Source of the DNA: a virus
Length of the DNA stretch: 64,000 nucleotides
Virus record (IMG/VR): IMGVR_UViG_3300028591_000197
Direction: 5' to 3' (one strand)
This document shows positions 4,997 through 59,716 of the stretch, piece after piece. The notes beneath the pieces were generated by a model. It worked only from the letters and a program-made list of their open reading frames with translations, ran no database searches and was not told the DNA's origin. Position 1 is the stretch's first letter; every line of letters starts with the position of its first letter. A program made the translations under genes and the position numbers.

Positions 4997-5012
4997 TATA
5001 ATCTATATATAG
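4997..5012 (+). promoter_or_regulatory. conserved promoter-like motif copy 1: TATAATCTATATATAG, preceded by a T5 tract; the ATG lies 6 nt downstream
   Basis: Exact 16-mer shared with copies at 19217, 46412 and 59701 (the last on the minus strand). Confidence 0.55.
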
Positions 5013-5017
5013 GAAAA

Positions 5018-5320
5018 ATGTTATTAGAAAAGAAACAAGAAGTCTTAAAGACTTTAGTAGACAATTATGTAATTATTAGAGACGAGGATTGAGAATTCCT
5101 CTGTCTTCTCGGAAGAGATGATGAATGATATTTTATCTATTCCCTTGAGCAGCACAATATTACCAAATCAGACGCAGAGGCTTTGTTAGACAAGGCAGCC
5201 TGAATTGCGCTAACTCCAGTGGTTGATGAGAAGATTAAATTACAATACAAAGAAGAATTGGACGAAGAAGAAGAAAATTTACAAACACAGATTGAGGAAG
5301 ATTACTTCGAGGAGGAATAG
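5018..5320 (+). CDS. small acidic protein (about 100 aa)
   Basis: ATG at 5018 directly after the promoter motif. The frame is continuous through 3 TGA codons and ends with TAG at 5318-5320. Confidence 0.45.
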
Positions 5321-5350
5321 AAAAATATTTATTCGATAAATTTTTGCTAA

Positions 5351-8331
5351 ATGAGTGCAAGTGATGATGTTCTAAATCTATTCAATAATCGTAATAATTT
5401 ATTTAAATTACCATCTCAAAAGACTCTAGCAGAGAAAATAGCAGATGGGTCAATATCACAACCAGTATCAACTACCAATGAAGTACAAGAGGAGCTATTC
5501 ACTCCTAGTGCAATTTCTTCTGTTGTGAAAAATAATTTAAATAATCCAGGTTCACCTATATTAACTAATGGTTGACAGGATGATACCACTACACCTATTA
5601 CGCAATCATCACAAACAGATGTTGTATCGCAAGAACTACAAGAAACTAATGCAAATGATAATCCAGAGACACAATGAATTAGTTGATTCTGGAATAATCT
5701 TAAAACCTCTATGAAGGCTAGTAATGATTACGAAGCCAAGAAAAAACAAATAGCTCTATGATATGATGAAGATTCTGAAGAAGTTCTTTATCTAGACCTA
5801 GATGAGTCTGAATGAATTACAGATTCTCTTTGAGGAATTATATGAACTCGTGAAGCATTTGAACAAGCTTATGAAGACTATCTTTCTGCAGCATCTGACC
5901 CTACATTGTCAGAACAAGAACAGGCTAAATTACTCCTTAAGTTTTATGATGATACAAAATGATTATTTAGACTTAAGTGAGATGATTGGTATAGTGATGC
6001 TATCTTTTTCCAAACGGATGACACAAAAATGTTTTGAAAAAGAAAGGACCAGTATAGTGAGGAAACATTAAAAAATTTATCTGCTAATGGGACAAAGGCT
6101 TGAAAGTTTGAACCAACGTTTAATGAATGGCGAGAGTATATACAGACACAAGCAGAAAATGAGGGAATTCAAAAAGAAATTCTAGAATGATACGGAATTG
6201 CTTCAGATACTACAACTACAGAATTAGACCTAGAGGACTCAGACAAAACCCAATTAAATAGCTTGTTTGATAGGGCTATGGCTTGAGTGTTGCCAGCTAT
6301 TACTGAAAATATTCCTGCTGCCGAAACACATCATAATGTAATTTGAAAACTTAGAATGATGGCTAGAGAGCAGCTTTCGGACGTAGATGAGATAGCACAA
6401 TGAGTTTATAATATTGAAAAACTTGTATTACTTAAGCCAGAAAGTGAGCGAAATGAATACGATAAAGAAGTAGTTACTACAGCAAATGCCTTTAGACAGA
6501 TGGAAAAAGATTTTGCCGATTGATTAAATGATTTCTTCTTGCAAACAATTAAGGGTTGAATTGATGAGAATTGACAATTGACTAATTTGCTAGATATATA
6601 TGAAGACTGAAAAGAGCTTTGGGAAGTTTTATGAGATAAGGTTAGAGAAGACTTACCAGAATGAGTGATTGAATTTGCTCCCTGAAAAACTGCTAAAGAT
6701 GTCTTAGATAAGAATTGGTCTGTAAAGGATATATTCCAAGAACTAAACAATAGGGTTCGTTATCATTACTACAAAAATAATGTGCACGATGATAGTCGAT
6801 GGGGACGTCGTTGGGATGATTTGCAAAGATTTCGATGATTAGCTGAGGAGTCTTGGATGGAGATATGACAAAATGTGTGGCAATCTATTAGTTCATTATG
6901 GGATAACCAAACGGAATATTCTGACCAAGATATAACAAAAGCTAAGCTATTAGACGCAAATTGATTTTTGTATGACTATTTCTGAGGAGATACTATATAT
7001 AAATACATTTATTGATTAGAAGAGCTTTGACCAGAAACTGCTTGAAGCCTTTGAGCTATGTGGCTTGGGTCAAAATGATTTTGAGCGGCAGGTAGATGAA
7101 CAGGGTTCTTTACATCTATATCAAATAATATTTCTAGAAGTAAAAATGCCATCAATGCTATTAAAGCATTAAAGTGATGAACTCTTTTAGAAAGAATGGC
7201 AGCCCTAGATAAAGCTATGGCTTGAGTGTCTACTTGAACGAAGAAGTTGAGTGATATATCAAAAGCACTTACTACAAGCGAGAAGCGATGGATATGAACA
7301 AAATTAGCGGCACAAAAATTAGATAAACTAATTACAGAAGGTATTGTAGACCAGACAATGGATGCCTTATGGTCTCCATTTGATACTGAAGCATATTCTC
7401 CTTTAAGTATGCAATTATCTCTATGGTGAACACTTGGACTTACAATGCTCCCAGAATTAAATAAAGGTAAAGCCCTTACTTGATGGCTAACTAGGTCTGT
7501 TCGTGATACTTGAAACGGAATATGGGATATGGTTGACTTCTTAACATCTTCTAAAGAATGAGCTGAGCAATTCTATCAAGCATTCTGAAAAGATATTAGA
7601 ACAATGTCTCTTACAGACTTAGAAAATTTCAGGAAAAGATTTAAGGAAATGGAGTGAGCTGCAATTAAAGCTTACAATCAGTTACCTGAAGCTTGAAAGG
7701 AGGCGGCCTGACAATGGACGAAAAAAATGATGTATGATTATATTGCTCAGGCATTTGGAAGTAATTCAGAGATAGCAAAGAGTGTTAGAACTATCCTTAT
7801 GAATAAAAAAACCGACCCCGCAGATATAATCAAATATATCGGAAGGAATGCTTGAACAGTTTCATTTGGACCTTATATCTCTACAATTAAATTTAAACAA
7901 TGAACTAGGTGACTCGTATCTTGAGCATATGACCCAAGTCTAGATGCTCTTGGATGAGGATTTGCATCTAGATTAAGTTGAGGATTTACTCAAGATGATA
8001 TAAATAAACTTTCTAAAATATCTCATCTTGATGAAAATTGAAATCCAAAAGATTATGGTGATATAGTTAAGAATCAAGATAAATTATTCTATAAAAGTAA
8101 TTGAAAATTCTATTTAACTGAGGAATGATTAGAGCGTTTCTGATTATCAGCCTCACACGAATCTCTAGAATCTCTAGGTATTAGCTTAGCTAGAGCTGAA
8201 GAGGTTAAGGAGATATTAAGGGAGAAGATGAAATGAATGGGAAAATTATCTGATGATGTAATTGATGATATAGCTGAGACTTGAGCTTATGATGAAGTAT
8301 TAGCTAAAATGAGAGAAATAGTTTGTTAATT
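5351..8331 (+). CDS. giant protein 1 (about 993 aa), unknown function; virion or internal protein candidate
   Basis: The frame is continuous from ATG 5351 to TAA at about 8329 with about 60 in-frame TGA codons. It is Glu/Lys-rich and predicted helical, with recurrent AMAGV and GGF motifs. Track ORFs 5351.. and 6406.. are fragments or shadow ORFs of it. Confidence 0.55.
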
Positions 8332-8352
8332 TTATTTATGAAGTATCTATAA

Positions 8353-11300
8353 ATGGCGAAAGTTAAAAATTGTGAAGATATGGCAAACATATTAGCCGTA
8401 TCTTTGTTCACCTGAGATGAAGAGATGGCTAAAGCCTTAGCGGAGGCTTCATTCCAAAAGAGAGTGGCTATTTCTCGTAGTAAGAATTTGGATGTGTCTA
8501 AGGATAGTAAAGAGATAGATGAGCTTACAAAGCAATCCTGACATCACCTACATTTGAGAGCTGCTTCTGCAGACATACAGATTATGTCTATAATTCAAGC
8601 AAAGATTCTTAAATGAGAAGGTAGAGTTAAGGAAGCTGAGGCTATATTATGAGAAGCTTATCGTAGAATGTGATGAACTATATGATGATGAATTGATTTA
8701 TTAAATATGGTTCAAAACGCAAAGCCATCTGAATTGGATGAAATAGCTAGGCTTCGATGATTGAGTTGAAAAAAAGCCGATGAAGTTCTCGAACAAATAA
8801 ATGACCAGATAGCTAAGTTTGAGTCGTCAAACTATAGTATAAAACAGCACGCGGACTTTGTTCGTGACGATATGGCAAAGATTAAAAGTAAATATAGGAA
8901 GAAAGAGCGAGATGATGAAAAAATAGAGAAGGAAGTTGAAAAGGCATATAGGAAATGATTAAAGGATATTATGGAGGGAAATAACCCTACTGATATAGTA
9001 AAGCTTGATGAGGAATGGGCTCAAATAAAAAGGCTCTATCCTGTCAATTCTTCTATGAAATGAAAGACAAAGGAAAAAATGTTGAAGGCTAGGGCAGAAG
9101 CCTGGAGTCAATATATTATGGCTAGAGAAATTTTGGCTGATTGATGAATTGATGAAGATATATTTAAGGCTTTTAAGAAATCAATTAAAACAAAAAACCT
9201 AGCTAAAAAATTAACAATAGACCAGATTATGGCCTACAAAAAATGAGACTTAGACCTTTTGTTGGCTAGAGCTTATTTAAATACAAAGCAATTATGTGAG
9301 GATTGAGCACTTAGAAAAGCTTTTAGAGATAAGTTAGTTGAGCTTACAACTTGAGAAGATGTAAGTTGACAAACTTCAAAAAGGATTCAATCTATTATAA
9401 ATACATTAAAATTTTCTGAAGAATGAGCATCGTTTGCTACTGTACTTAAATACGATAATCTAGCTAATAGTGTGATTGACCGTGGGTTAACTACACAGAA
9501 GAAAAGATGAAAGAAAATATATGAATCAATTATGAAGTTCTGTAAAGAACTTAGGGAAAATCCAAACCTTCTTGAGGAAGAAATTGTTATCGATTGAATG
9601 AAGATGCAACCTGTAGATGTAATTCAATTGGTTTATGAAATCACTTGAGATAAAAATATTGTAGCTTTGTTAAATATTGGGAAATATGATGATAGTATTG
9701 TGTTAAATGTAGCATCTCAATATTTGCTAGGGAACAATAAAGCGGCTCAAGAATCTATTTTAAAGTTATTGGCTAAATGAAAGAAATGAAGTCAAATAAC
9801 AAATACTCGTAATTTGATATTAAAATCAATTACTTGACAAGATATTGAGGATTGAGCAAAGGTTGCTTTCTATGATTTTAGAGAGTGATTATATAATAAA
9901 AACAAACTAAATAGACGTAGAGCAGACTTTAGAGAAGCTCTTGCTAATAGAAACAGATTGAGGATTGAAGGTAGTGGTATTACAAATCTATCTGAAATTA
10001 AAGATGAAAAGTTATTAGCTAAAGCTTTGGATGAATTTGAATGATGATATTTGGTTGTAAATGATATAGCTTGGAGAGATAATGAAGTATTAAGAAAAGC
10101 AGTTAAAGATAAGAAGATTACAGTTATATTTCCAGAAAGAGGGATGACATCTAATTTTGTTTGGGAGGATAAAAATCTAATCTTTAGGACTAATGATAAT
10201 AAACTCTTTGAAAAAATTGCAGGTAAAATATCTATTCAAACATTATGATGAGCTAGACCTACTGAAGCAATTGAAGAAGCTTGAAAGAAGGTAAAAAGTT
10301 GAGCCACTGAAGCTTGACAAGAGATAAATGTAGTTAGAGAGATTGGAACTATAGATGATGATATAGAAGCTGCGGCAATCAAATATTATTGAGAAATGCT
10401 TTGAGAAACTACCCCAGAGAAATTAGATGATGAGTATGTTCGTAGAATAAAGAATATGCTAGCTGAACATCTATGACTTGATATTAAAGCATTTGATGCA
10501 ATAAAAGATAAAGCTGAGCTTTGGCAGATGATTGATGAGAAATTCTGTATGGAGAAGCTTACAATGTGAAGATATGAAATGGAGATAATTGATATGTGAG
10601 CAGAAATAAAGAGAATTGAGGATATGTCTCCAGAAGAATTGATTAAGGAAATTAAACAACATATCTGAGACTATTATAGTGATGAAGCTATGCTAGAGGC
10701 TTGAGTGTTTAATCAGATTAGAGAAGCATATATAGACTTTAGAACTGCAGAATCCCCAGAAACTATTTTGATGGCTAAGTGAAGAATGATGTCTTTGGCT
10801 GCTTGAGGGCAGGCAAAGAGAATGACTATGGACCAAATCATTTCGATGTTTCAAAAATGAACGATGGCCGATGTCTATAAAGAAATGTTCTTCCCAACTC
10901 AAGATTTAACAAAGGAACAGCTAGATACTTTGATTAATAGTATCAATGATGATTTATTTGATATTATTTGTCTACAAGTAGAGAATAACTTAGTAAAAGC
11001 TTGATATTCATTACCATTGATGAACATAAAATGAATGGTGTATGACTACATTAAGACAGGTGAAATATCTACAGCTTGAGATTTTGTTAGGAGTTTTGCT
11101 CTTAAGAATAACATAAATGACACTGTAGTTGGTGAAACTTTGCTACAGTTTATGCCAAAAGAAATTAAGTTTGACTATGAAGATGCTCTATATAAAGGTA
11201 GAGATTTAACTATAGAGAATGGTCAAAGAAGTGTATTTAGAGAGGCTAAAAATGAATTCTTAGAAGACAGTTATTCTGCTCTTGCTACTATAGAGATGGC

Positions 11301-14300
11301 TAAATCTTGAGATATGCCAGCTGGATATGAAAGAGAAATCTTAGAAAAAATCCTAGATAAATATATAAGCAAGTTTTCAGAAAGATTAGCTGCTTGATGA
11401 TTAGACTTTAGGGAAGCTGCCTGAATAAAACAAGAAGCGTCTTATGCTTTGGATATGTTTGAGCAAGATTTAGTTCTTGCTAGGTTTGGTAGATTAATGT
11501 CTCCGTCGGAAAGACAGTGATTGCTTTGAATGAAATATGAACTTCCTATTGCCGTGTCTTGACAAAATTCAAGCGATGTAATTAAGGAAATGGAAAAAAT
11601 CAAAGCTACTTTATTAGATAGATATGATAGGACATTAAAGAATGTAGCTGAAAATAACAAAATTAATGCCACAATAGCTAAATGAATGGATTGAAAAAAG
11701 TCCTTAAAAAAGAGAATCGAATTAAGAAAACAAAAACTTAAAGAAGACTGAATGGTTATAAAAGAAGTTAACTGACAATATCTTACATTTGATTCTAGAA
11801 CAGCATTACTCAATGAATTAAATAATTTATCTCCTAATATTAGGTGACTTGAATCCATCAAAGCTTTAGGTAAGAGTTGATTGGAGCAATTACCAAATGA
11901 ACAAGTATATGCTATATTAAGATATGTGGAAGCAGCAAAGGCTTTAGAGTCTAAGGCAAATTATGTTACTACATTAATGTATAAGCAAAGCCCAGAGTTG
12001 TTTAATTTACAGTTCTTTAAGAGTTATAAAGTTGTAGATTGATTACCAAGAATTATGCACGGTAATTCTCTACAGAATTTAGATGTACTTAAGAATCTTT
12101 CAAATACTTCTGTAGTTGATAATACAATGAAGAGACAAATCTTCAAAAAAATAAAAGAGGAATTTGGAATAAACTGAAAATTAACAGAGAAAAAGTTAAA
12201 GGCAATTATCAAGGAAGTGGTAGATGATAATGCTCAAGATATACTTTGAACTGCAAAGATATCTGTATATAAGAAGAAGTTGGCTACTGAATTAATGGCA
12301 TTAAAATACAAAAGGTTATTTAATCCATATACCCTTATTAAGGATTTGCCTACACAATGATGAGAAGGTTCAATAAAAAAGAAGGTTGAGGATATAATTA
12401 AAAAGCAATATAATGAAGCAATTCTCGATTTAAAAAATATGGGGATTGATACATTAGATAGCTTGGAAAATAAAATCTCAGTTATCACAACTTCTTGAGA
12501 AGAAAAGACTTTGAAAGAAATAGGGACTGAAAGTATCGATTGATGGAAGAAGGATGTATTTGATGATGAAACTATCTTTGTTAAGTCGGCAGACGAGATA
12601 AAAGATTTTGATACTAGCGATTGACATTGGGGAATACTTAGTAAATGGAGAAAAGATAAGGCAGTAAAAGAACAGAAAGCATATAGGGAAATGATTGCTA
12701 ACGAATATGACTCTACATTACAGACTATGCTTAATGGTTCTGAAGATATTACATCAGCAGAGAGAAAACTTATGACAGCTCTTTGGTTTGATGTGAGGTG
12801 AAAGATGAAAAAATATTCATTAACTAATCAAATTATCGAGACTGCTGATGTACTAGGTTCATTAAATGAAGAAATTGCTAGATGAATGAAAGACTATTTG
12901 ATATGATTTATATGAAATGCTTCATTCTGAAAACTTAATTCTAAAGCAATCACAGATAGATTAAAGGAGGTACAAACAGCATATGAAAAATTTTATACTT
13001 TAGATACGGCTTCTTTAAGTAGGGTTAAGCCTACAACTAAAGCAGAACATCTAGCATTAAACTTAACAAAATATTTTAAAACTATGGAGAATAGTTTATG
13101 AAGTTTTGATTGAGTTACTTGATGTACAACTGTTGCAGATATAAATAAAGCATTCTATCACATCTGAGAAGTGTTTATGAATCTAAAGTGAACTGAATGA
13201 GTATTCTCTTTATTGTCTGCTATTGAGCAAAACCAGATATTAAAATTCTTTAAATTCGCTGAGAAGTGAGATGATGCTTATGTAGATATATTCAAGCATT
13301 GATGACTTAAGGAAGATTGAGCTTTGGGTTGATATAGGGATTATGTAAATGAGGTGTCTCTTACGAGAGAGCAATTTAATCGTATATTTGGTGCAGCATT
13401 TGATAATCGAGATTATAAAGAAATAATGCAGGCTCTTTCTTGATTTACAATAACTTGAAGTTGGTTCTGAAGGCGAGGGCAAAGAATATTAAATTTCTTG
13501 AACTGAAGTACTTGGATGTGAAGATTAATTCTTTCTTATCCATTACAGTTGCTCTCAATACCTTTACAAGGATGAGCATATTTCTTAAAACAAATTTGAT
13601 TTGAAAGAAGATTATGAATTGATAGTTTGCGGGATATAGATGTGGTTAGAGATTGATTGTGAATTTGAAATGGAAGCTATAACGAATTGCTATGAATATG
13701 AAAGAGTTTAGTAAGTCCAGATGATTTGAACTTAAATTCTTACTACAATAGGTACTGAATACCTGATGTAGATAGAATATATAAATGAGCGAATTTTGAA
13801 ACCGCACAAGATTATTTAAGTATGTATGCTAATATAGATAACTATGCTTCTTCTGATGTCAGCTCTGTATCTTGGTGGTTTAGGCAACTTGACCCATATA
13901 AAGATAATGCAAACAATATTATAGACTGAGCATTTGCTAGAAACTTTAAGAATATAGCTTTCTACAAAGCTATGAAGGAGAATAATTTCCTACAGTTTGG
14001 CTCTGTGAGAGAGCTTACTGATTTCTTAAATAATCCAGAAATAAGTGCTGGAATTAAAGATAAGTTGATAAAAAGATTAGAAACAGATTTCGCTAAAAAC
14101 TTTAGAAGTATTCTTTGATTATGATTTGGTTGATTAGATAGACCAGTCGCCTGAAATGCTTTATGAAATATATTTATTTGACTAGCTAACTTATTTAATT
14201 TTAGGTGAAGTTGGTGAAGAAATATAGCTAAGCAAACTTGACAATCAATAATGTCTACTTTAAAATGGATTAAGATGAACCCATTATCAAAGGAGGCAAA

Positions 14301-16656
14301 GGAGGCAATGGCAGACTTCTTAGTAAAAACGCCAGAATTTATGAACTTCATATGAGATTGGTTTAACTGAATGCTTTGGTCTTGGAAGTTAATAAGGTAT
14401 CAAGATAATGGAAAGTGGGAAGACTTAGACCAACCGCATTCAATTATGGACTTCTTAGAGTTCTTAACAGATAACTTTAGTGAGATGGCAGGAATGATAT
14501 TTACAAATGCTAATCTTACATCTCAATGGCTACAAGGTATTGAGTCTTATGGAATTGCTAGACCAGTAATTGAAGCTATTGGTTCTATGTATTTAAGTAG
14601 TCAAAATCCAACTATATATAAAGATACTTGGTGAGTTTGAGCATTGTTTAATTCTATTGGTAAAAACTTTGGAAGACAATGGAAGACTAGAAACTTCATA
14701 TTTAAGCTTCTTTGAGTACGAAGGACTGACTGAGCTTCTTGAGTTGAGGCATTTATTCAAAACGAATTATGGAAATTATCTTGAGGTTCTGTTAGATATA
14801 TGGTAACCGAAGATATGAATTCTTATTGATATACAATGGAAATGACTTGAGAAGAGTGAGGTTGAATCCCTTCTCTATTCTTATGAGAAGCTCCTATTGG
14901 TTCAGATAAGACATTTATGTATGAATTAGATAATACAGAGGTTTGGGAAACTATAAAGTTATTGTTTGATGATGATTTAGCTTGGAGTGATAAAAAAGCT
15001 TATGCAAGTAATCTTACTAGATGATTAGTTAATTCATCTCAATTACTTTCTGCTGGATATAATTCTTGAAAGCTGTGGCATTGAGAAGATTTTACTCATC
15101 CATTTACAGAGAGTGATTTAGCAGGAGTTCTTACAAAGACAGAATATTGAAAAGAATTCTATAGGAAGTGATTAGTAACTCCAAAGAATCCAGATGATGC
15201 TAGAACATTCTATGACCAGCTTACTAAGAATTGACAATATAGGCCTTGAAGTGAAAGCTTTAACACATCCATAGAGAACTTTAACAAGACTTGACATATG
15301 GATGGAAAGGATTGAAAAGAGGCAGACAAGGAAATGGAACTTTGGTTAAATCATATGAAGTATTCAACTAATGAACATTGAGAATATATCCTTAAAAGTT
15401 GAAAGAAAGTTGAAGATAAAGCTTGGACAATGCTTATGCAAGACATTAAATCACATTATTATGACCAAGATTATGTTACAGATTTAGTATATCAATATTC
15501 ACAGAAATGGTTAGATGTACATTCTAGTGACCCTAATTATCCTCTATATCTTAAGATGTTGTGACAATGAGCTGCTTATAGGCTTATTCAAGATTGATTA
15601 AATAGAGAAAAAGAGCTCCTTAATATCTTTGGTGGTAAAAAGGCTAATGAAAAATGGGATTTAAATGAACTTAAAAAGGCTTGATACTTGGATGATTTAA
15701 TCTTTAAAGTTTGAAATAGCAAAATTCTTTGAGGAGATGAAACATATTTCGAGAGATTGCAAGCTCTAGACCAAGATGCAGCAATTGATGCTTCTTTGAT
15801 GCTAGCAGCACAGCAAGTAAAAGATGAAACGGATAAAAAAACTTTGGAAAAGTTCTTTAAGATTGTCGAGGAAGATGATTGAACAGGAGAAAAAATTAAA
15901 TCTATTCAATTTGAAAAACAATATCTTGCACAGCTAAGACAGCTATGAGCTATGGAGATTGCTAAAGATGAATGAAATTTAGAAAGATTTATAGCTGAAG
16001 CTGCAAACATAACTAATATGTTTAGCAACGATGACCCAACTTGAGTTGTAACGGCTAGCTTAATTGATTCTATTTATGAGAGAATTAATTCGTCTAACTT
16101 ATCTTGAGCACAAAAGGTTGAGGCTATGGCGGCTTTATTTCATCATAACAAAGATTTAATTCAGCGTAATCCTGAATTAATGAGAGAATACTTATGAGAT
16201 GATTATGATAAGTATGCTAAATATATGAATACAATTTTGTACTGATGGGATTGACAACTTATCTCTACAATCGATAGTATGATTACAAGTAATGATGATG
16301 ACACAAAGAGCACTTCTTGAAAGTGAGCTTCATTATCTTCAGCATTTAAAAGTACTTGAATGAAGCTTTGAGGAAACAATTATTCACAGTCTGTGACTAC
16401 TTGAAGCTGAGAATACAAACAATGGATTCCTATCACTATTGGTTGAGCAGAATTAGTTAGAGCTCTTTGAGTTAAGTGATATACTCCAGATGTGTCAAAG
16501 GTTAAAGTTAATAGTTATAAACCTCACGTTGACTTCTCTATTAAGAAAGATGTTAACAGAAGTGTTAATTGACCAAAAACACAACAGATATCAAATAAGA
16601 AACAATTAAGCAATCTTACGAAGAAAGCTAAGAAGGCACTTGAAGCAGAAAATTAA
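8353..16656 (+). CDS. giant protein 2 (about 2767 aa), unknown function; candidate ejected or internal virion protein
   Basis: I walked the frame codon by codon from ATG 8353 to TAA 16654-16656 and met no TAA or TAG, but well over 150 TGA codons. Track ORFs 10051.. and 14371.. lie in the same frame. Confidence 0.6.
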
Positions 16657-16730: not shown

Positions 16731-16811
16731 GACGGTAGTACCTGATATTTCCTTTTATATTTTATGCCAATAAAAATGTGAATTGATGTAAATCAGATGG
16801 AGGAGGATGTT

Positions 16812-19143: not shown

Positions 19144-19151
19144 TTAAATAA

Positions 19152-19190
19152 AAGCCCAGGTGTTAGCTTGGGTTTTTTATTTTAATTCAA
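19152..19190 (+). terminator. probable terminator after the portal gene
   Basis: Hairpin aagcccaggtgttagcttgggtt followed by ttttatttt. Confidence 0.35.
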
Positions 19191-19216: not shown

Positions 19217-19232
19217 TATAATCTATATATAG
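19217..19232 (+). promoter_or_regulatory. conserved promoter-like motif copy 2 (TATAATCTATATATAG), upstream of the scaffold/MCP genes
   Basis: Exact 16-mer preceded by a T-tract, with an immediate downstream hairpin gaaaagg...ccttttc. Confidence 0.55.
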
Positions 19233-19375
19233 AAAAGGTGATAATTGGACGCCTTTTCGTAAGTGATGCGTAGACGCATAATGGTGATGGTGGTTGAATG
19301 GATTAGCTAGCTATGGGATAGTACTTCGAGTTGGTAGGCGAAGGAAGCGACATAGTCTACACATAGCTAGCAATA
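19233..19375 (+). other. structured 5' leader: hairpin 19233-19259; palindrome atgcgt-ag-acgcat; long-range stem tagctagctatg/catagctagc enclosing a tRNA D-arm-like hairpin cttcg-AGTTGGTAGG-cgaag
   Basis: Inverted repeats read directly from the sequence. The loop AGTTGGTAG matches the canonical tRNA D-loop, but I could not build a full cloverleaf. Confidence 0.3.
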
Positions 19376-19408
19376 TCTATTCGTATTTTAATTCATAAAC
19401 TTTTGATT

Positions 19409-39606: not shown

Positions 39607-39633
39607 TTTTAAATAAATAACATAAAGATAATT

Positions 39634-40317
39634 ATGTCTTTAATAGCACATTACCCTCTAATAGCTAATTGAAACGATACAGAGGGAAATTATAATTTAA
39701 CCAACTCTAACGTGGTACCTTTTACTCAAGTACAATGAGTAACTTGTGCGAAGTTTAGTGGTATTGACTACCAATACCTTCACGTAAGCCAATTCCCATT
39801 TTCAGGAGATATAGAACTCTATGTTAACTTTTGGATGTGTAGCACAACGAATAATTATTCTAACTATCCATCTGTCATATGATTAGGTACTACACAACAA
39901 TGAAATGAAAATTTCTGTGTACGAATTAGTCCTGATTATGGTAGTATATTATGTACTTGATGATGGGATTGTGACGCTCATTCAAACTATGTAGTTCCTA
40001 CAAATAAATGGATTAATGTAGCTGTAGCATATAAAGACTGAGCTATAAAAATGTATGTAAATGGAGAGAATAAAATAGATGCAACTATCCCTTCATATAA
40101 TATTACTTGATGAGAATTCAGCGTTTGAGGTCAACCAACTTGAGGTTCAATATTTACGTGATGAGTAAGTGATTTGTATGTCTATGATGCAATTCCAGCT
40201 AATCTAGAAACAGAAATAGTCGACCATTATAACGCTACAAAATGAACATATATAAAACCTAAATTTAATCTTCATTCTATATTTGGGACCTTTCATAAAA
40301 AAACTTCCACTATTTAA
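39634..40317 (+). CDS. LamG / concanavalin-A-like lectin domain protein (about 227 aa)
   Basis: Carries WINVAVAYKDGAIKMYVNGENKIDAT...GGEFSVGGQPTGG, the typical Laminin_G_3 pattern. Confidence 0.45.
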
Positions 40318-40337
40318 TTAATAATGAACAATTAAAT

Positions 40338-41711: not shown

Positions 41712-41712
41712 A

Positions 41713-43137: not shown

Positions 43138-43139
43138 AA

Positions 43140-44009
43140 ATGTGACAAATACGTAAATGAGATAATCTTATAAGTGGGGTAAAGCTAGGAGGACAAACTA
43201 TCAGAAAAGCATTTAAGTGAGACGCTCAGATTTGGCCTGTATATGTTCCACCTGTTGTATGAAATATAATTAGTTGTGATTTTACAAATGAAACTGACCA
43301 AAGCCTTATAAGCCAATGATTTCAAAGCGTTTGAGAATCTTATTGATTAACTGTCTCTTGAGACTGAAGTTGACTTAATTGGGTAACTTATGAAACAGAT
43401 ACAGCAAGTGGTATAGAATTCCCATACTCTGCAAGTCTAGTTTGAAAGCAAATATCTTGGACAGCATATGTACATAAACAAGATTTTGACTTATGGTGAG
43501 GACCTAAGTTGACACTACATATGAACCCCACACAAACTGGTCGTAATAAATATAGCAACATATCTTATATACCTTTAGCTTGGGTTGTATGAGAATATGA
43601 TTCAGGCTGGCCTACATATTCTAATGTAGACGCTTGATTTATATCTATATATGGATGAAATAGATACGATTGAAATAAATCTTGAAGTGGACTATATCGG
43701 TGAAGTTTATATGCCCCATCTTGATATGAAAATCTTTGATTCGGAGCTGACGTTTGAACGTATAAAATGGAATGATTTATTGATTTTGATACTTGGGCCT
43801 ATCAAAACACGCGAACTAATCCAAATTGAGACACGTATACTTTTGAAAGATACTTCACTCCATCTGACACATCACAAGAAGCTAAAGCTATAATTAATAA
43901 TAGTTTAGCGTCGTCTAATAAACATTTTTCTATAGAACTTTCTAGATGACGGTGATATCACTGAAGAGATGTTGATAGACGACTGTCTTTATATGTAGAT
44001 GTATATTAA
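43140..44009 (+). CDS. tail fibre paralog (about 289 aa)
   Basis: N-terminus MGQIRKGDNLISGVKLGGQTIRKAFKGDAQIWP. It is very TGA(Gly)-rich. Track ORF 43651.. lies in another frame and is rejected. Confidence 0.4.
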
Positions 44010-44456: not shown

Positions 44457-44558
44457 GCAGGTAATACCGTAGTCAAAAATATTTTAAGACACACAAATAA
44501 TACGATGTGGATAAATTACTTACTTCAAATTATTTTATCTAAAATAAACATTTTAAGA

Positions 44559-46411: not shown

Positions 46412-46427
46412 TATAATCTATATATAG
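46412..46427 (+). promoter_or_regulatory. conserved promoter-like motif copy 3 (TATAATCTATATATAG) followed by two hairpins (atagagaaa-cca-tttctctat; cccctag...ctagggg + T-run) at 46428-46495
   Basis: Exact 16-mer preceded by an A5 tract. Confidence 0.55.
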
Positions 46428-46505
46428 AGAAACCATTTCTCTATAGCCCCTAGTTATTCCCCCGATAGCTAGGGGTTTAATTTTTAATAGTTAATTTTAA
46501 TTGCT

Positions 46506-46799
46506 ATGAGAGCACTTAAAAATTTTATGAGAGACCGTAAAAAGGATATGCTAGGTTGCGGAGATTGTAAATGTAGAACTTTACAATGCTGGAGACTAGC
46601 TGATGAATATTGTGATTGTTGAGATTACAGCACTGAAGAAAACGTTACTCCTGTAGAGCCTGTAGAGCCAGTAAATCCTGATATTCCAGACGAACCTATT
46701 AATGATGACGATAATGACGATAATAACAATAACGAAAATAACGAAGAAGATAACAACGAAGAACCAGATATTTTAGATTTAAATGAATTAAATAGTTAA
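46506..46799 (+). CDS. small Cys-rich N-terminus / poly-acidic C-terminus protein (about 97 aa)
   Basis: CGDCKCRTLQCW...YCDCGDY followed by a D/E/N-rich tail. Confidence 0.4.
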
Positions 46800-46801
46800 T
46801 T

Positions 46802-47557
46802 ATGGCTATATTATGAATAGATGTAGCTAGGAATAATCTGCAAATAGCTTGAAGAAAGTATGCAGAAATTCAAAGGCAGTTAGATAGATATAATAAAGTA
46901 TTTGAAGCATATTCTAATGCTAGCCCAGAAACACAGATAAGAGCTGAATCTGTAATTAGATATGCTCTAGATGTTTACACTGGATTAAAGAAACAGCAAG
47001 AAGAAAATGCTATGAAAATGTATGAAGCACAGCAATGGGTTAATTATTATAGACAAAATACCCCACAGACAACACAAACAATTCAGGGTGATTTACAGAA
47101 TACCCCATCGCAAGACCCTATAGTCGATAGAACTGAGGCGGCTCCTGTGGAAACGGTACCTGTAATAGCAACAACAACTCCTTGAGCATTAAACAATAAT
47201 GCTCCAACAACAAATGTTGATACTACTACTTTGAATAACACTTCTGTGGCAACTTCTAATGTACAAGTTAATCCGACAGCTTCAGTTTGAACTACAAATA
47301 TAATTAAATCTCAAACTCCTAAATATCCTAACACAACAATAAGTCCTGTACAGACAACTACTCCAAGTAATGTTAATTGGCCTAACTATTGACCAGGTAG
47401 TGTGGCACAAATGCCAGGTACTTGAAATGTTCTTTCATTTAATACTACAATGCCTTATTCTACTTGAAGAAAGACGACTACTAGCAATTTATGAAAGACG
47501 GTTAATGAATTGTTTAGGAAATGAGCTACATATTTATATAATTATTTAAGAAAATAA
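46802..47557 (+). CDS. hypothetical Thr/Asn-rich protein (about 251 aa)
   Basis: Continuous frame with TGA read as Gly. Its stop overlaps the next ATG (TAATG). Confidence 0.4.
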
Positions 47558-48435
47558 TGCTTACACAAGAACAAGCAAATGCTTTAAATCTTGAGCAACA
47601 CGCTTTAGAGGCAGCAGAGCTTAGACAGATGGATGCGCAGAAGGAGATAGACAAATATGAAAAACTCCTTACTGATATTAGAGATAATATCAATTCCTAT
47701 ACTCCAGAGCAAAGAGAAAAAATTGCCGATATGTTACCTAGATTAACTGAGGGATATAATTCAGCAAAAGATAAAAGGGCTAAAGCTGAGGATGATTATT
47801 GGCAAAGAATTAATAAAATAAACGAGTACAAAGCATTAGATGCCCAACAAACTGCTCCTGCTCCACAACAAACAAGGAGAAGAAAAGTAGAAACTCCTAA
47901 TAATTATTTTGGTGGAGAGTGATGGTCTACATTACAAGATGGAACTTTAATCTCTCCAGATGGAATGACTATAGTTTATCCTGATTGAAGTATATCTTTT
48001 GGAGAAGCTGGAATGAGCTCTATTAATGATGCAACAGGATGGATATCTACTCCAGAAGGACCTAGATATGGCTGAGGTATTAAAACAGTTATTCATCCAT
48101 CTACACAACAAGAACAATATATGACTCCTATTACAGAATGAATAGGATGGATGTCTACTCCAGAGGGACCTAGATATGGTTGAGGTATTAAAACTGTAAC
48201 ACAAGAACAACCACAACAATATATGACTCCTATTACAGAATGAATTGGTTGGGGGTCAACAGCTAACTGACCAGCTTATTTAGGATGAGTTAGAACAGTT
48301 AAAGAAACTCCACAAGTGGTAAACTCTGGTAGTGCAGTTAGAGCTCCTCAATTAAAATGAGTTGACCCTAACTTTGTATATACTCCTTGAATGAAATTAA
48401 GAACTTGGGGTAATGGTACAGGTACTTTAATTTAA
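47557..48435 (+). CDS. hypothetical protein with internal tandem repeats (about 292 aa)
   Basis: Track ORF 47557..47922 read through its TGA. The repeat TGWISTPEGPRYGGGIKTV...QYMTPITEG occurs 2-3 times. Confidence 0.45.
48030..48260. repeat. tandem DNA repeat of about 100 bp, about 2.3 copies, inside the 47557 gene
   Basis: Seen directly. Minus-strand track ORF 47947..48219 is a shadow ORF of it. Confidence 0.6.
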
Positions 48436-48447
48436 TAATTTAGAATA

Positions 48448-49434
48448 ATGGCAACAAGAGACCCAGACTACATACTAAAGCAAATTAATAGTTTGCTAGA
48501 CTGAAGTAAGACTCCTAGCCAAGTTAGAATAGAGGATTGAATTAGTAGAGGTAGTGATGCAGCTCCTACTTACACAGTGCCTACTAATGTACCTGAATGA
48601 TTAGGTAGTGCGGCTCCATATTATCACTCTAATACTTTCACTCCTTCCGAAACATATAAGCTTCGTTCAGAATGATATTACGACCAATGAGATACTGCCT
48701 TATGAGATGCTTATAAGGCTTTATGGAATTGAAGTAATATTTATTCTAACACAGCGAATCAAATTACTGACTTCTATAGCCAATTAGCTAGTGATGTAGC
48801 AAAAAGAGAAATGGCTTTAGCTTGAGTAAAAGAAGGTGTGGCTAATAAACTCTTTAATGGTATTGAAGAAAGTAAAGCTTATGTTAATAGTATGTTCTGA
48901 CCTAATGGGACATTAACTAGAGAAGTAAATAAATATTACGACGACTTAGGGAATTATCTATCTACAGATGCCTGAAGACAAGCTGCTACAATAGCTGCAC
49001 AGTGAGCCCACACTTGAGCTTCTTTAGGTTCTATTAGAGCACAGCAAAATGAAGCATATAATCAAAGCTTCCAAAGATATATTCAAGCTAAAGAACAAGA
49101 AATTAATGCAAAACAAGCTATTGCTAGTAATCTAATTAATTTTATGTCAACTCTCAGAAAAGAATATTGAGATACAACAAATACATATATTATTTCTCAA
49201 TATCAAAGAGCTAATGATTTATTAGAAGCTATTAGTCAAAGTATTGCTGATGCTAATAAAGAAGTTGCTTGAGCAAGGTTAACGAATGCTACAAAATCTA
49301 GTTCTTCTAGCAGTAATAGTATGGGAGATGCTTTATGATGGTTAAGTAAATTACTTACATTATGAGCAGAAGAAGAAACAACAACTGATGAGTGAAGTAA
49401 TGAAGAAGATGAAAGATTTAGAGTTGTATCATAA
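48448..49434 (+). CDS. hypothetical structural protein (about 328 aa)
   Basis: Continuous frame from ATG 48448 to TAA 49432-49434. Confidence 0.4.
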
Positions 49435-49439
49435 TTAAA

Positions 49440-49694
49440 ATGGCACGTAATATATTTAGTAGGCAAGTGTGGAAACTTCAGCAAAGAGGTTTCCCACTAG
49501 CCGATGCTAAACGTATAGCATATAAACAGCAAGTAAAGAATGGGAACATTCAGCTGTGAACATATCAACTTACCGACCAGGGTAAGGAATATTCTAATTT
49601 ATTCTCTGAAAAGAGAGCTATAATTAGAAAGAATAGGGCTAGGCAAAATCAACTAGCCAAAAAACAAAATGCTTTAGATTGAGTTTTAGACTAA
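49440..49694 (+). CDS. small basic protein (about 84 aa)
   Basis: ATG at 49440 and TAA at 49692-49694. Confidence 0.35.
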
Positions 49695-49695
49695 A

Positions 49696-50139
49696 ATGGC
49701 ACACTGTAATTTATGTAACAAAAATACAAGATGTAGCTGCAAAGGGGGATGATGTCCTAATTGTAACTCAACAAATAAACAGATATCTTTCTTGAACGAC
49801 TTGCTCAAATTCTGAGTTAGCAAAGAAAGTATTCTAGCAGACCTAAATAATATTAGGAGATATGAATGACAAATAGATAGTTTCACTATGTATGAACATC
49901 TTACTAATGCGATAACTGAAGAAGAATTTGAACAGGCTGTTAAGGATTATCTTCCAAACAAACACAAGAAAGCGAAACCTGTTATTCAAAACGAAGTTGT
50001 AGATGTGTCTAATAGAGTAAATCCAGATACAAAACATAAATTCCCTAGCTCATCTGCTTGGAGTAGATGTGAATATTGTTGGGGAATTAGAAAATATGTA
50101 GAATGAAAAGAATGTCCTGCCCACAAGAAGGACGAATAA
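49696..50139 (+). CDS. Cys-rich (zinc-ribbon-like) protein (about 147 aa)
   Basis: N-terminus CNLCNKNTRCSCKGGGCPNC and C-terminus CEYCWGIRKYVEGKECPAH. Track ORF 49888.. is its 3' part. Confidence 0.4.
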
Positions 50140-50163
50140 TTTTAAATTAAACAATTAACTTAA

Positions 50164-51378
50164 ATGACAACAACAGCAAATCCTTTGTTAGAAAACTGCT
50201 GTAATCCTTGCTGCTGAGATAGCGGATGCAAAGGTAAGTGAGCTATTAACATTGTCTCTACAAATCCAGATTGCCTTAGAGTGGACACATCTGAGTGTTG
50301 AGTTGTAAAGCTCGAGCCGACTTGTCCTTCAGAGGTTATAGCTTGAGATAATGTCACAGTCGAAACTATTGAATGTGAAGAGTGAGCTAGTTGTAGCAAA
50401 AAGTATAAAGTTTCTGCTAACTGCGAAGACACAAAAGTAAAGGCCTGTCCTAGTGATACAAAAGCTTGAACCTTAACACAAAAGTTAGAAGCTTGACACG
50501 CAATTACACTTACACTAAATTGATGTGATTGAGAAACGGATAGTAAAATTCGTATCGATGTAGATGATGATAAGGTTAAAGTAGATATCCCAAAAATTAA
50601 AGTCATTAACAATTCTAATGTCGCTATGCTAGCAGTCAGTTGAGATGATTGACACACAATAACAATCTACGATAAAGAACAAAGCACATATGATAATATG
50701 TGTTGTTTGTGATTTGAATCATCAAAAGATTATACTGATGTAGAAACAGATGGTAGTGCAAACTCAAAAAGACCTCGCTTCATTTGAGAAGAAGGAAAGA
50801 ATTGGGATTTGTTCACTTGAAATAGAGAAATGGCTACAGCTCAATGAATTAAAATATTAGCCGATTGATACTACAGAGTTTTCTGACAGATTACCGTAGT
50901 AAACAATATTAAAAATGACCCATATTTTAATTTATGAAGATGATTATTGAGAATTGATTGAAATACTACAATCAGGCCAGAACTAGGTAATCGATATTTA
51001 TCTACAGCAAAGCACTGAGCATATGCTAGACAAATATTACTAGATGCTTGAACTTGAATAGATGTAGATAATGATTGAGTTATCTCTACAGGTAGCTGAC
51101 AGTGACAGACAGGATGAGATTTTGACTGACCTTGGATGACATTCAATATCGATACTCTAGTAGATTTAAGAGAATGAGATATTGTAACTGTGTGATATCG
51201 TCCACAGTCAAATATGGATAGAGCAAAGAATATAACTTGAAGCTTTAGATTTGTAGGAAAAGACGATAGCTCAACACATTTCCAAGCTTTATTCTGAGGA
51301 ACTGTAATTTGAGTTCATCAATTAGCTCCAAAGTTATTCCAAGATTGAGCTCCAAACAAAGTTTATGAAAGATTTTAA
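50164..51378 (+). CDS. Cys-rich N-terminus / C1q(TNF)-like C-terminus protein (about 404 aa); candidate receptor-binding protein
   Basis: CCNPCCGDSGCKGKG at the N-terminus. The C-terminus YYRVFGQITVVNNIKNDPYFNLGRGLLRIDGNTTIR...GAYARQILLDAG resembles a C1q-type jelly roll. Track ORF 50160..50657 on the minus strand is a shadow ORF. Confidence 0.4.
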
Positions 51379-54468: not shown

Positions 54469-55049
54469 TAGTATGAAGGTAAAACAAAATTGTCTATTGC
54501 TAAAGCATCGGTATTCCTAGTTCCCCTTTTTTTCTTCTTAGGAAGGGGGGCTTGGGACCCCAAGTACTCGGGTTCAGAAATTTTGGCCGGTATTTCGGGT
54601 TCCGCCTCAACAATGACTTTTTTCTCCTTTTGCTCCTTTTTTCTTACGAGAATTTCCTTGTCCAAGGTATCATTCTCAGTTTTAATTCTTTCTAGAGCTT
54701 CTCTTTTAGATTTATTAGCCTCAAGATATTCTTTCACTAAAGTTTTACTTTCTTTAGCAATTACCTTAAATGGCTCTGGTAGTTCTGAGATAGTCTGTGT
54801 ATATAAATCCATAACTATTGTGGCTAGTTGAAACTTGTCCAACTCTATATTGTGATTGTCTAGATACTCTTCACATACCTCAATTAGCTTAGCATTTATA
54901 TCGTCAAGCATATCATCTGGGTCAGCTTTGTTGTGCTTGATGATTACCTCCAATCATACCTTCTCCAAAGAGAACTCTAGTATTCATTGGTACACAGTTA
55001 TAAACTGCTTTAACTCTTTACGAGTTCATTTAGCGGTTGTCTGCATCTT
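54468..55049 (-). CDS. hypothetical acidic protein (about 193 aa)
   Basis: The track ORF uses a TTG start. The frame continues upstream to an ATG at about 55049 that overlaps the end of the sigma-like gene. Confidence 0.35.
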
Positions 55050-55590
55050 CTAAATCATTTTGCTCGATAAATCTTTTTACTTTAGTAGCAATTGTATCTA
55101 CTATATCTCTCACATTATAATATGTGGTTTTCATTAGTCTAGCTATTTCGTACTTTCATCTACCTTCTCATAGATATTGTAGGACTTTAGCCTCAAGTGG
55201 GGTAATCACATTGTTTACGACTAATACATATTGTAGCATATCGACATCCATATCATAGCTCCAGTGTTCGCTATCTCTAATGTCGTCGATAGTATAACTT
55301 TCTGGTCCGAATTGATTGAGTTTGTTATATAACACTCAACCTCATCTATTAAATAGATACCATAGCTTACTGATTTTCTTTTCGTTAGCAACATCTTCTC
55401 TAAGAAGAATGTTGTCTGCGATTAGAAAGCTCTCAGAAAGAATATCATCTTTGGTGTAGGTATAGTTTTTGTGACGTAATAGAGGGTTCTTCCTCATAAG
55501 TAGTTCCATATTCTCGTATAGGAATATTCTACCTTGTTCAATGTCTTTTTTATATAAATCTAATACCCTTTCATAGATATTCTTTTGCAT
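55030..55590 (-). CDS. sigma-factor-like protein with region-4 helix-turn-helix (about 186 aa)
   Basis: The C-terminus LEAKVLQYLGEGRGKYEIARLMKTTYYNVRDIVDTIATKVKRF matches the sigma-70 region 4 / LuxR-type HTH pattern. Track ORF 55342..55623 is its N-terminal part. Confidence 0.4.
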
Positions 55591-55600
55591 TTTTTTGTTT

Positions 55601-56811
55601 TTATTTTGGTAAATTGAGTTCATCTTCTAGGCACCTAGCACAGGTTACCAATGTAACTCATAGGAATTTACTTACACATTCATACATATATTGGTAAGCA
55701 GTTTCAGCCAAGTGGATATAATCTAAATCATCCATCTTTGTATTTAGAACTTCTTGGCTAAATTGATAAATGGCTATAGAATGCTTAACCAAACACCACA
55801 TATGGTCGTCACACTCTATAGCCATTTCCTTTAATTTTCTCATAGCTAATCTTCTCTCCTCCAAGAGGCTTTCCATTTTCATCTCGTGCCATACACTTTC
55901 CTCTTCCAAGTCAGCAGCTTCATCTTCTGAGAAGACTTTTCTGTTGTTTAAATCTACTTGTAGAGAATTGTATAATTCATAATGATGAGAATAGCTAGCA
56001 ATAAGATTAGCAATGAGTTCAATGAGCTCTGTTGCAGCTCAGCGTTGACTATCTTTATTCATTACATTCTATCGAGTGAGCCTTCCGTGGTTTCTATATG
56101 TCCCTCGTGTACTCACACTAAATAATCGTAGAGCTTTTCTTTTACGAATTGCTCTGCTTCATCTCTCTTAACAATATGAGTGATGTTTTGGTGCTGCATT
56201 TTCTTTTGCTTTGTGAATACAAGATAGCTAAACGAAATTGCATCTATATCTGGATGCTGTAGGAATTGGAACCAAGGGTAAAACCTTCATTGATAACATC
56301 AGAAATCTCGTTTCTCTGTTTCGTTCCATTTTTTCTTAGCCGTCTTGCAATCAAACAACATAGCACCATTCATTCACCAATCTATTTCCCCCGTCAATAT
56401 AATCTTATAACCACTAAAGTCTACCTCAACTGCACTCCTAAGGTTTCTTATATCATACATACCAATAGCTTCGTACTGCTCAGATAGAGGTATTAGTTGT
56501 TCTAGTCAGTCGTATAGCCAAGTGAATTGCTTGTCTTCTTCTCAACTAGAAGAATAATATCTCATTCTCTCTGGGTTCATCATACTTCTTGCTATCTCAA
56601 TCTGATGTTGGGCTGCCTCAACTCATTGATTAATTCTAGCAAAAACTATATTCTCCACTAAGTTTCAAACCCAATATGTATTGGCTTTTTTCTTAGGTTC
56701 CAACTCTCCAACGAATGGAGGTGTAGGAACAAGAGCTTTTTCTATCTCAGTAACTGAGACTATGATAGTTTTATAATCTTCCTTAAGAGGTGCAAATTGG
56801 TGATAGAGCAT
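55601..56811 (-). CDS. hypothetical protein adjacent to SSB (about 403 aa); possible recombination or replication function
   Basis: Continuous frame with TGA read as sense. Track ORF 55658..55909 is its C-terminal part. Confidence 0.4.
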
Positions 56812-57495: not shown

Positions 57496-57568
57496 CTTTT
57501 TTAATAGGTTAATTAAATAAAGGTAACCCTTTTTTAACGATTTAATTTTCTAAGTCAAGAGGAATTTT

Positions 57569-58575: not shown

Positions 58576-58801
58576 TTTTATCTAATCAAATGATTAGAAA
58601 CACTAGGTAGTACCGTTCTGAAAAAACAAAAGACGGTCGGCAAAATATCTAATCGATAAATTGTCCACCGTCTATGTTTAATTCCAGGCATTTCATTTTT
58701 TGTTTTTGTTTTTGGGTAAAGTTTTGATACCAACTACCTTATACTGAATTTAATATTAATTGCAAATGTTTTTTTATAAAGAGGATATAGTCTGTTCTGA
58801 G

Positions 58802-59398
58802 CTAGTCTAGCTCAAGTTTTTTGATTGCACTAGAATAGTTTTTCGTTCGTCACTTACACTCGCTAGTACAATAGTGGCCATTGAGCCAATCTTGCCCAGT
58901 GGTTCTATTCTCTCGTCATTTCTCTACATAGAGATTTACTCGATACTTGATGCTGTCTTCTATAGAAGAAAACTTTCTTTTAATGTATCCATTCGTGGTT
59001 TTCTGCATCAATCAAAAGCCGTTGTTACTAGGATACATCCCCTTCTGGAAGATAGAGCTTTCAGCATTGCTGACCCCTATTACATCCTGAATGCACTTTT
59101 TATAGTTCTTTACTTTCGAAGAGCATTCGTGTACGATAGTATAACTTACATCGTAATTCCCCACAAGCTTGTCAACTTGTTCTGCAAGTTTCTGCTCAGT
59201 CATTTCCCAAGTGTAGATGATTTGTTCCTCTTCCACTTTGGGAGTTGTAGGAACGACTTCTTCTACGGTTTCCCCCGTTAAAACAGATACTTGCATTTCG
59301 TTAATGATATCCTCGGTATGTCCTTGGTTGTATCATAATATGAAGACTAATATAATTACCATAACGGCAATTAAAATCTTCAATCGTTTGTTGGTCAT
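58802..59398 (-). CDS. N-terminally membrane-anchored protein (about 198 aa)
   Basis: Signal-anchor MTNKRLKILIAVMVIILVFILGYNQG. Track ORF 59012..59296 is an internal part. Plus-strand ORF 58874..59281 is a shadow ORF. Confidence 0.45.
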
Positions 59399-59528
59399 TC
59401 GATTTATTAAGAATTAAATCTTCCCAATGTATACTATGTATACAAAGGTGCCGACCATATCCTCTTGCCCTCTTTAGAGTAGCTCCAGATGATTGAGCTC
59501 AATCTCCGAGAACCGTTGCGAACAACTA

Positions 59529-59684
59529 CTACTCTTGGCTGAGGCTTCCACCTCTTCGTACTTTATTTCTCTCACACATTTCTTCATAGCCACACAATGT
59601 TTGGAATAAACATTGACGGCAGCTTTCAATTTGTATTCAATGTTTACAAATTGGGGTCTTTTCTTTTTCTTGGTCTTTTTCCAT
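59529..59684 (-). CDS. small Cys-rich protein (about 51 aa)
   Basis: ATG about 17-26 nt downstream of promoter motif copy 4. Sequence MEKDQEKEKTPICKHGIQIESCRQCLFQTLCGYEEMCERNK... Confidence 0.35.
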
Positions 59685-59700
59685 ATAATCCGTATAAGAA

Positions 59701-59716
59701 ATAAAAGTCTCTATAT
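59701..59716 (-). promoter_or_regulatory. conserved promoter-like motif copy 4 (TATAATCTATATATAG on the minus strand), preceded by an A6 tract
   Basis: Exact 16-mer. This is the only copy in the minus-strand early/replication-type block. Confidence 0.55.

Follow-up and report, generated by a model that had tools for sequence, protein, structure and literature searches.

In Bacillus phage SPO1, transcription runs as a cascade on the host core polymerase throughout, with host sigma-A acting on early promoters, phage gp28 on middle promoters, and gp34 together with gp33 on late promoters (PMC13401047). In T4, late transcription depends on gp55, which has no domain 4, and the late promoters have no -35 box. 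The promoters of T7, SP6 and K11 belong to another class: they are continuous recognition sequences of 17-23 bp that lack separate -35 and -10 boxes, and their use requires an RNA polymerase (RNAP) gene of the phage. Here we analyzed a stretch of 64,000 nucleotides from a virus (IMG/VR record IMGVR_UViG_3300028591_000197; hereafter, the window), in which a preliminary description had noted a repeated 16-mer, TATAATCTATATATAG, and likened it to the promoters of single-subunit phage RNAPs. Our analysis showed that the 16-mer is the downstream half of a 39-bp, two-box promoter of bacterial type, which heads six transcription units. We consider these sites to be a phage-specific class of middle or late promoters that is read by the host core polymerase with a phage sigma factor, and we give this reading a probability of about 0.5.

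The arrangement proposed here resembles that of SPO1 in that the host core polymerase would be kept, host-type promoters would act early, and a small phage sigma would later direct the enzyme to phage-specific bipartite promoters. It differs from SPO1 in that a single sigma gene was found, with no detectable sequence relation to gp28 or gp34, in that the -10 box is the housekeeping consensus, and in that the host would be a bacterium reading TGA as glycine and not a Firmicute. The late consensus of SPO1, CGTTAGA ... GATATT, is similar to the aGTTATA ... TATAAT of the window. Unlike T4 gp55 and its promoters, the candidate sigma has a sigma4-like domain and the sites have a fixed box at the -35 position; neither a sliding-clamp coactivator nor homologues of MotA or AsiA were seen here. 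With the T7, SP6 and K11 promoters the element shares its uniformity, its phage-specific sequence, its several copies per genome and its ending in TATAG plus a purine, but no phage RNAP gene was found. This is a strategy in the style of SPO1 and T4 in a new phage group, and not a new principle or mechanism.

The 39-bp element and its placement

The exact 16-mer occurs four times in the window, at 4997-5012 (+), 19217-19232 (+), 46412-46427 (+) and 59711-59726 (-), and never in 100 dinucleotide-preserving shuffles. The count and the three plus-strand positions had been given correctly before, but the minus-strand copy had been placed at 59701-59716. The variant reported near 1825 on the plus strand does exist (1825-1840, three mismatches). 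A further variant, GATAATCTATAGATAG at 1700-1715 (-), is closer to the 16-mer and had been overlooked, so that the copies number six and not five. These two variants are divergent and lie in one intergenic region. Matches to the 16-mer with three mismatches within genes (17963, 18531 and 43645) do not exceed chance level (9 against 4.6 expected).

Alignment of the flanks revealed GTTATA exactly 17 nt upstream of TATAAT or GATAAT in five of the six copies, whereas the preliminary description had seen no consistently spaced -35 box. The full element is GTTATA-N17-TATAAT-CTATATATAG, in which CTATATATAG equals its own reverse complement and thus forms the perfect palindrome that had been noted in the 3' half. 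An A-rich run lies 5' of GTTATA, and an A/T run closes the spacer at its 3' end. Frequent occurrence inside coding regions had been named as a sign against a promoter; a search of the 64 kb for GTTATA-N17-TATAAT with at most one mismatch returned the same five intergenic sites and no match in coding sequence. Two hexamers 16-18 bp apart with TAnnnT as the downstream one, the layout of promoters of the sigma-70 family, were present at five of the six window sites. This layout indicates a multisubunit RNAP with a sigma-70-family factor rather than the continuous recognition sequence of a T7-like enzyme, and the bipartite form, the 17-bp spacer and the perfect -10 box TATAAT all speak against the likeness to single-subunit RNAP promoters. 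The motif, its layout and its placement are read directly from the DNA.

The placement became clear once the genetic code of the phage was taken into account. Under the standard bacterial code, the longest open reading frame (ORF) in the window has 455 amino acids. With TGA as a sense codon, the total length of ORFs of at least 150 amino acids rises from 6.5 kb to 68 kb, and an orderly phage gene map appears with a complete structural module, including a protein of 2767 amino acids at 8353-16656. The window is from a phage in which TGA encodes glycine (code 25), because the Walker A motif (P-loop) of the terminase reads GPRGGGKS only under this decoding, because TGA (4.6% of codons) and the GGN codons (3.2%) add up to a normal glycine level of 7.8%, and because W in database homologues translated with TGA as tryptophan coincides with alignment columns where other members have G. 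On the same three grounds TGA=Trp was rejected; TGG already accounts for 1.4% of codons. ARAGORN found no tRNA gene in the window, and tRNA-Gly(UCA) was not seen. The relatives described below carry genes for tRNA-Ser(UGA), tRNA-Cys(GCA) and tRNA-Gly(GCC) beyond the position of the window's right end (L131 734-822 and 1205-1280; L130 3172-3245).

In this gene map none of the six copies falls within a gene, and each points to the next gene on its own strand, at the head of a transcription unit, as the preliminary description had held for the copies known to it. The sites, named P1 to P6, mark the units for terminase, giant gene to portal, scaffold and major capsid protein, and post-lysis genes, together with two minus-strand units. 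P1 (1700-1738, -) reads GTTATA-N17-GATAAT-CTATAGATAG and faces the gene at 1205-1501, followed by replication genes. P2 (1803-1840, +) is TATAAT-CTATTAGTAG without GTTATA, and it faces 1868-2815 and the large terminase gene at 2815-4965. P3 (4974-5012, +) is a perfect GTTATA-N17-TATAAT-CTATATATAG, 5 nt 5' of the ATG of 5018-5320, and its unit includes the 992-amino-acid gene, the 2767-amino-acid gene and the portal gene. P4 (19194-19232, +), also perfect, heads the scaffold and major capsid genes and is preceded by an intrinsic-terminator-like hairpin at 19151-19178. The perfect copy P5 (46389-46427, +) comes after endolysin-like and holin genes and heads 46506-51378. P6 (59711-59749, -), the last perfect copy, heads a Cys-rich ORF at 59529-59684 and the gene at 58802-59398.

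Several observations were made beside these sites. The sequence AAAATGTCAAA at 1785-1795 (+), some 35-45 nt 5' of P2, the terminase promoter, is conserved in the divergent regions of L127-L129, and its complement, TTTGACATTTT, lies within the P1 spacer in relatives and at 1719-1731 in the window. The pair looks like binding sites of a regulator that would switch between P1 and P2. The Cys-rich ORF directly 3' of P6 (59529-59684, -; about 51 amino acids, CxH...CxxC...C) is also present in L130 and L131, and the plus-strand ORF that overlaps it is spurious. The region 29096-44009 (+) encodes several large tail-fibre-like proteins with common repeats of the type GLISLS.DG..W.TIADKNLGA...YYQ.GNN, which suggests a paralogous receptor-binding family.

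Conservation in related phages and the search for a phage polymerase

When the capsid, terminase and sigma-like proteins were used as queries, a large family of related contigs was found, 65-82 kb long and for the most part from gut metagenomes of ruminants. The relatives were compared through 20-kb stretches from a dozen contigs, and handles such as L127 refer to sequences in our comparison. The element is present at syntenic positions in the relatives. Among 21 non-identical sites from the window and the relatives, GTTATA is found in 16 and exact TATAAT in 18. Information over these sites peaks at GTTATA, at TATAAT and at the CTA next to it, then at ATAG, while the spacers are variable. P1 homologues in L127-L129 retain GTTATA-N17-TATAAT, P3 is conserved in L127, L128, L129 and several contigs of the Joint Genome Institute (JGI), and P6 homologues were found in L131 and L130. 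The exact 39-nt pattern was detected in 19 stretches of JGI metagenome contigs, all 19 of which belong to relatives of this phage (64-87% nucleotide identity to it), at the positions of P3, P4 or P5.

In IMG/VR, the 39-nt pattern gave 0 matches and the major capsid protein found no relative; the 16-mer alone had more than 120 single, unrelated matches there, which are uninformative for an AT-rich 16-mer. A megablast search of 25 kb against GenBank phages returned no match, and more distant relatives, whose terminases are 39-50% identical, have other repeated motifs. The placement of all 19 JGI stretches on relatives indicates that the element is restricted to the phage family.

Palindromic content, and the fact that GTTATA is almost an inverted copy of TATAAT, would also suit an element that is not a promoter at all, for example the operator of a regulator, a signal for recombination or packaging, or a repeat dispersed by mobile DNA. 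We regard this as very improbable, since the copies are strictly oriented to the downstream gene, every one of them lies just before genes (P4 just after a terminator), and conservation peaks at the -35 and -10 positions.

The promoter of a phage single-subunit RNAP of the T7/SP6 type, or of an N4-like RNAP that depends on hairpins, was the first interpretation of the 16-mer, and the ending TATAG plus purine and the unusual uniformity of the copies agree with it. But no T7-, N4- or crAss-type polymerase is encoded in the window or in those regions of the relatives that correspond to the rest of the genome. The proteins of 2767 and 992 amino acids gave no Pfam or PDB sequence match and contain no DxDGD-type or D-x-D-x-D motif; the giant protein of the relatives bears an ART-PolyVal domain. 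For the part beyond the window, ThiF, DnaB and small genes appear in the relatives' gene tables, which contain no polymerase family and no unexplained gene of more than 600 amino acids outside the structural module; the preliminary description had advised looking for a T7- or N4-like RNAP gene in the rest of the genome, and none was encountered in these tables.

The element also differs in form from both promoter types. It consists of two conserved boxes around a variable 17-bp spacer, not of a continuous sequence from about -17 to +6 as in the T7 type. For the N4 virion RNAP, promoter hairpins lie at -17 to -9, whereas all hairpins noted here are downstream of the -10 box and start region, and the giant proteins are without a polymerase signature. 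The element is thus outside the T7 and N4 promoter families, whose defining features were looked for and not seen, and recognition of these sites by a phage RNAP is largely refuted, with hardly any probability left. Of the two readers that had been suggested for the element, a phage RNAP and a sigma-like protein, it is the sigma option that became the favoured explanation.

The candidate sigma factor and host-type promoters

The sigma-like ORF reported near 55030 spans 55030-55623 (-) and encodes a protein of 197 amino acids with a putative sigma2-like and a sigma4-like domain, which is the candidate reader of the element. It is conserved through the phage family with 49-96% identity. Several independent signals, each of them weak, agree on a sigma factor: a PHROG annotated as RNA polymerase sigma factor was matched with E 8e-4, the top PDB sequence match was a SigH structure (E 0.019), the SigH-type NCBIfam model NF006147 was matched by 12 of 29 family members (best E 1.2e-3, below cut-off), and TIGR02937 was matched with E 3.7e-3, also below cut-off. 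Pfam gave no match for this protein or for most minus-strand proteins, and no curated family threshold was reached. An AlphaFold model, made for a 55%-identical homologue and not for the window protein, has a mean predicted local distance difference test (pLDDT) score of 73 and shows two helical domains linked by a disordered segment; its Foldseek matches are almost exclusively sigma factors, with a top probability of 0.99. A sigma4-type helix-turn-helix domain is present at the C terminus. These results directly support a sigma fold, and we assign the ORF with moderate confidence to a divergent two-domain protein of the sigma-70 family.

Two canonical promoters were found upstream of the sigma gene. 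TTGACT-N16-TAAAAA at 57531-57558 (-) precedes genes for proteins of 221, 249 and 153 amino acids as well as the sigma gene, and its counterpart in L130 and L131 is TTGACA-N16-TATAAA. TTGCAA-N16-TATAAG at 58738-58765 (-) is conserved in L130 and L131, the three genomes having TTGCAA/TTGAAA-N16-TATAAG variants at this position. A scan of 51-64 kb with a generic sigma-70 consensus showed no enrichment (34 sites against 49 expected), and therefore the two calls rest on conservation in L130 and L131. The position of both promoters upstream of the sigma gene suggests a cascade from host to phage sigma.

In such a cascade, host sigma-A would first fire the TTGACx-N16-TAnAAn promoters in the minus-strand region, by which the phage sigma would be expressed. 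The phage sigma would then direct the polymerase to the six promoters of the GTTATA class, and so to the replication, terminase, giant-protein and portal, scaffold and capsid, and post-lysis genes. P6 lies upstream of the sigma gene and could add positive feedback. The enzyme would be the host multisubunit RNAP, with the product of 55030-55623 most likely as its specificity subunit, and transcripts would probably start at the A that lies some 7 nt 3' of TATAAT and begin with AUAG. The pairing of sigma and promoter, the start site and the timing are what we infer.

A search of reference genomes with the Band-7 protein of the window led to L158 (CAMVNG010000003.1, a contig of 92.7 kb), which is cellular, TGA-recoded and of 30% GC content. 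Its Band-7/SPFH gene (10001-10777) and that of the window (62817-63608, -) have 75% protein and 74.6% DNA identity. Other genes on L158 are those for ClpB, uracil-DNA glycosylase, Glu/Gln-tRNA synthetase (GltX), FemAB and a tRNA. The shared gene indicates a recent exchange between phage and cell and may help to trace the host lineage. In 2.3 kb of intergenic sequence, L158 has seven TTGAxx-N16-18-TAnnnT sites, all facing genes, at about three times the density in coding regions; this directly supports canonical promoters, of the TTGAAA/TTGACT type, in this related cellular genome. GTTATA-N17-TAnnnT was absent from L158, of which a single 20.8-kb stretch was searched and whose organism is only a putative host.

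The -35 position separates the two promoter types. GTTATA does not contain TTG, whereas the canonical promoters of L158 and of the phage have TTGAAA, TTGACT or TTGCAA. As GTTATA is strictly conserved and yet is without this TTG, the reader would be something other than domain 4 of sigma-A.

The six sites may instead be strong promoters of host sigma-A, made by TATAAT and A/T-rich upstream DNA with GTTATA as a weak -35 box, while the phage sigma serves another class. The perfect TATAAT, the 17-bp spacer and the A-tracts 5' of GTTATA would suit this. Both replication-type and structural units are headed by the element with no obvious temporal restriction, and P2 and the L130 homologue of P6 would have to work without GTTATA. 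We consider this reading a serious rival, though less likely than a phage sigma, because every canonical promoter of L158 and the phage has the TTG that GTTATA lacks, because GTTATA is unchanged in 16 of 21 diverged sites where neighbouring bases drift, which indicates a reader that does not prefer TTGACA, and because no site of the GTTATA class was found in the 20.8 kb of host-like DNA.

Under that alternative, the phage sigma might target another repeated motif, ACGGTAnTACCT, which occurs three times in the window, at 16732-16743 (+), 44459-44470 (-) and 58605-58616 (-), and also in L124, L127, L128 and L130. GGTAnTACC forms its palindromic core. A stretch of about 45 nt (GTGTCTTAAAATATTTTTGA..ACGGTAnTACCTG.TATTTC) is common to two copies of opposite orientation, and two copies come after terminator-like hairpins. 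The motif may act as an operator, or it may represent a second class of promoter.

Several points weigh against reading by a phage sigma. The -10 box matches the sigma-A consensus exactly and 17 bp is the optimal spacer for sigma-A, so the -10 box by itself could be enough for host sigma-A to use these promoters. The -10 sequences read by small alternative sigmas are usually different ones. GTTATA is missing from P2 in all four phages examined, and also from the L130 homologue of P6. In L121-L123, from three independent samples, P4 (L121 8795-8833) has TCTATT in place of TATAAT, with GTTATA and CTATATATAG intact, and no simple model of a sigma and its -10 box explains this. Overlapping tandem -10 boxes (TATAAT then TATATA) were considered for the L121 variant and rejected, as no -35 box supports them. 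The sequence scores behind the sigma assignment are below threshold and the mean pLDDT of the structural model is 73, and ACGGTAnTACCT could be the true target of the phage sigma. Host-like DNA was sampled in one 20.8-kb stretch, and the organism it comes from is unproven as host. Finally, the class cannot strictly depend on a sigma made only from P6, a difficulty that the canonical promoters downstream of P6 would resolve.

The perfect sigma-A -10 box beside an invariant, non-canonical box at about -35 would also agree with a division of labour, in which sigma-A reads TATAAT and a separate phage protein reads GTTATA, as in the MotA/AsiA system of T4, or binds CTATATATAG as an operator. The palindrome CTATATATAG overlaps the start site, and the L121-type P4 retains both flanking boxes with its -10 box decayed. 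We find this improbable: no MotA/AsiA-like or other candidate regulator was identified while the phage does have a conserved protein of the sigma family, and the exact 17-bp distance of GTTATA has the geometry of a contact by sigma domain 4.

Reading by a phage sigma remains our preference, and it can be put more specifically, in a form that we hold only tentatively. A very divergent SigH-like phage sigma may have taken over the housekeeping-type -10 box TATAAT and swapped the specificity at -35 to GTTATA, with its promoters coupled to conserved leader RNAs (5' hairpins, terminator-like stems and the covarying 175-nt leader ahead of the capsid genes) as a second level of control, for instance by antitermination or stabilisation, in lytic phages of TGA=Gly rumen bacteria of the Absconditabacteria/Gracilibacteria type.

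Leader RNAs and implications for the phage family

The hairpins that had been reported directly after copies 2 and 3 were recovered, with -10.5 and -7.5 kcal/mol and z-scores of about -3.5. All noted hairpins lie 3' of the -10 box in the transcribed leader and not 5' of the start site, which removes the analogy to N4; they are structures of the leader RNA. With a transcription start placed about 7 nt 3' of TATAAT, the P1, P4 and P5 RNAs would each have a hairpin at a distance of 0-4 nt from their 5' end (z-scores -2 to -4.6), and the stems of these hairpins are kept in relatives while the loops differ. The conserved 5' hairpins probably stabilise or regulate the RNA.

The P4 leader (19232-19408, +; about 175 nt, up to the scaffold gene) is structured, with its first hairpin at 19232-19258. 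Compensatory changes occur in 13 of 25 predicted pairs among five relatives, and the loop AGTTGGTAGG is conserved. A search against Rfam found no family in the window, this leader included, and the P4 leader is a candidate new cis-regulatory RNA that would govern capsid gene expression. In the P5 leader (46424-46475, +), a hairpin at the predicted 5' end (46424-46444) is followed by a CCCCC-loop hairpin (46447-46475) and then by T-rich sequence. The stems differ in L154, L131 and L140, yet pairing is maintained, and the CCCCC loop is conserved on a covarying stem. Lying right after the promoter, this second hairpin could serve in attenuation or termination, or it could be bound by a protein.

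The P1 leader (1547-1699, -) would begin with a hairpin at 1682-1699 and continue, ahead of the first gene, into a long terminator-like hairpin at 1547-1637 that ends in TTTTTGTTT. This stretch, also conserved in L127-L129, may give a small RNA or an antitermination-controlled leader. Terminator-like hairpins thus stand ahead of the first gene in both the P1 and P5 leaders. The promoter-proximal or 5'-terminal hairpins of the predicted P1, P4 and P5 transcripts resemble the ompA 5' stem-loop, the put RNA of HK022 and the lambda PR'-tR' region in arrangement. Unlike in those systems, they show no sequence similarity to them, and no Q- or N-like protein was identified.

To our knowledge, almost nothing is known about transcription in uncultured TGA=Gly bacteria and their phages. 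The interest of the present case lies in the host group (TGA=Gly, candidate-phyla-radiation type), in the clean promoter consensus and in the conserved leader RNAs. The sigma-promoter pair might serve as an orthogonal expression part. With the consensus, the candidate sigma and the contrasting canonical promoters, transcription units and temporal classes could be annotated across this family of rumen phages. If the more specific reading, with a SigH-like sigma and coupled leader RNAs, is true, no promoter-sigma pair and no cis-regulatory RNA would have been defined earlier for a phage of candidate-phyla-radiation bacteria.

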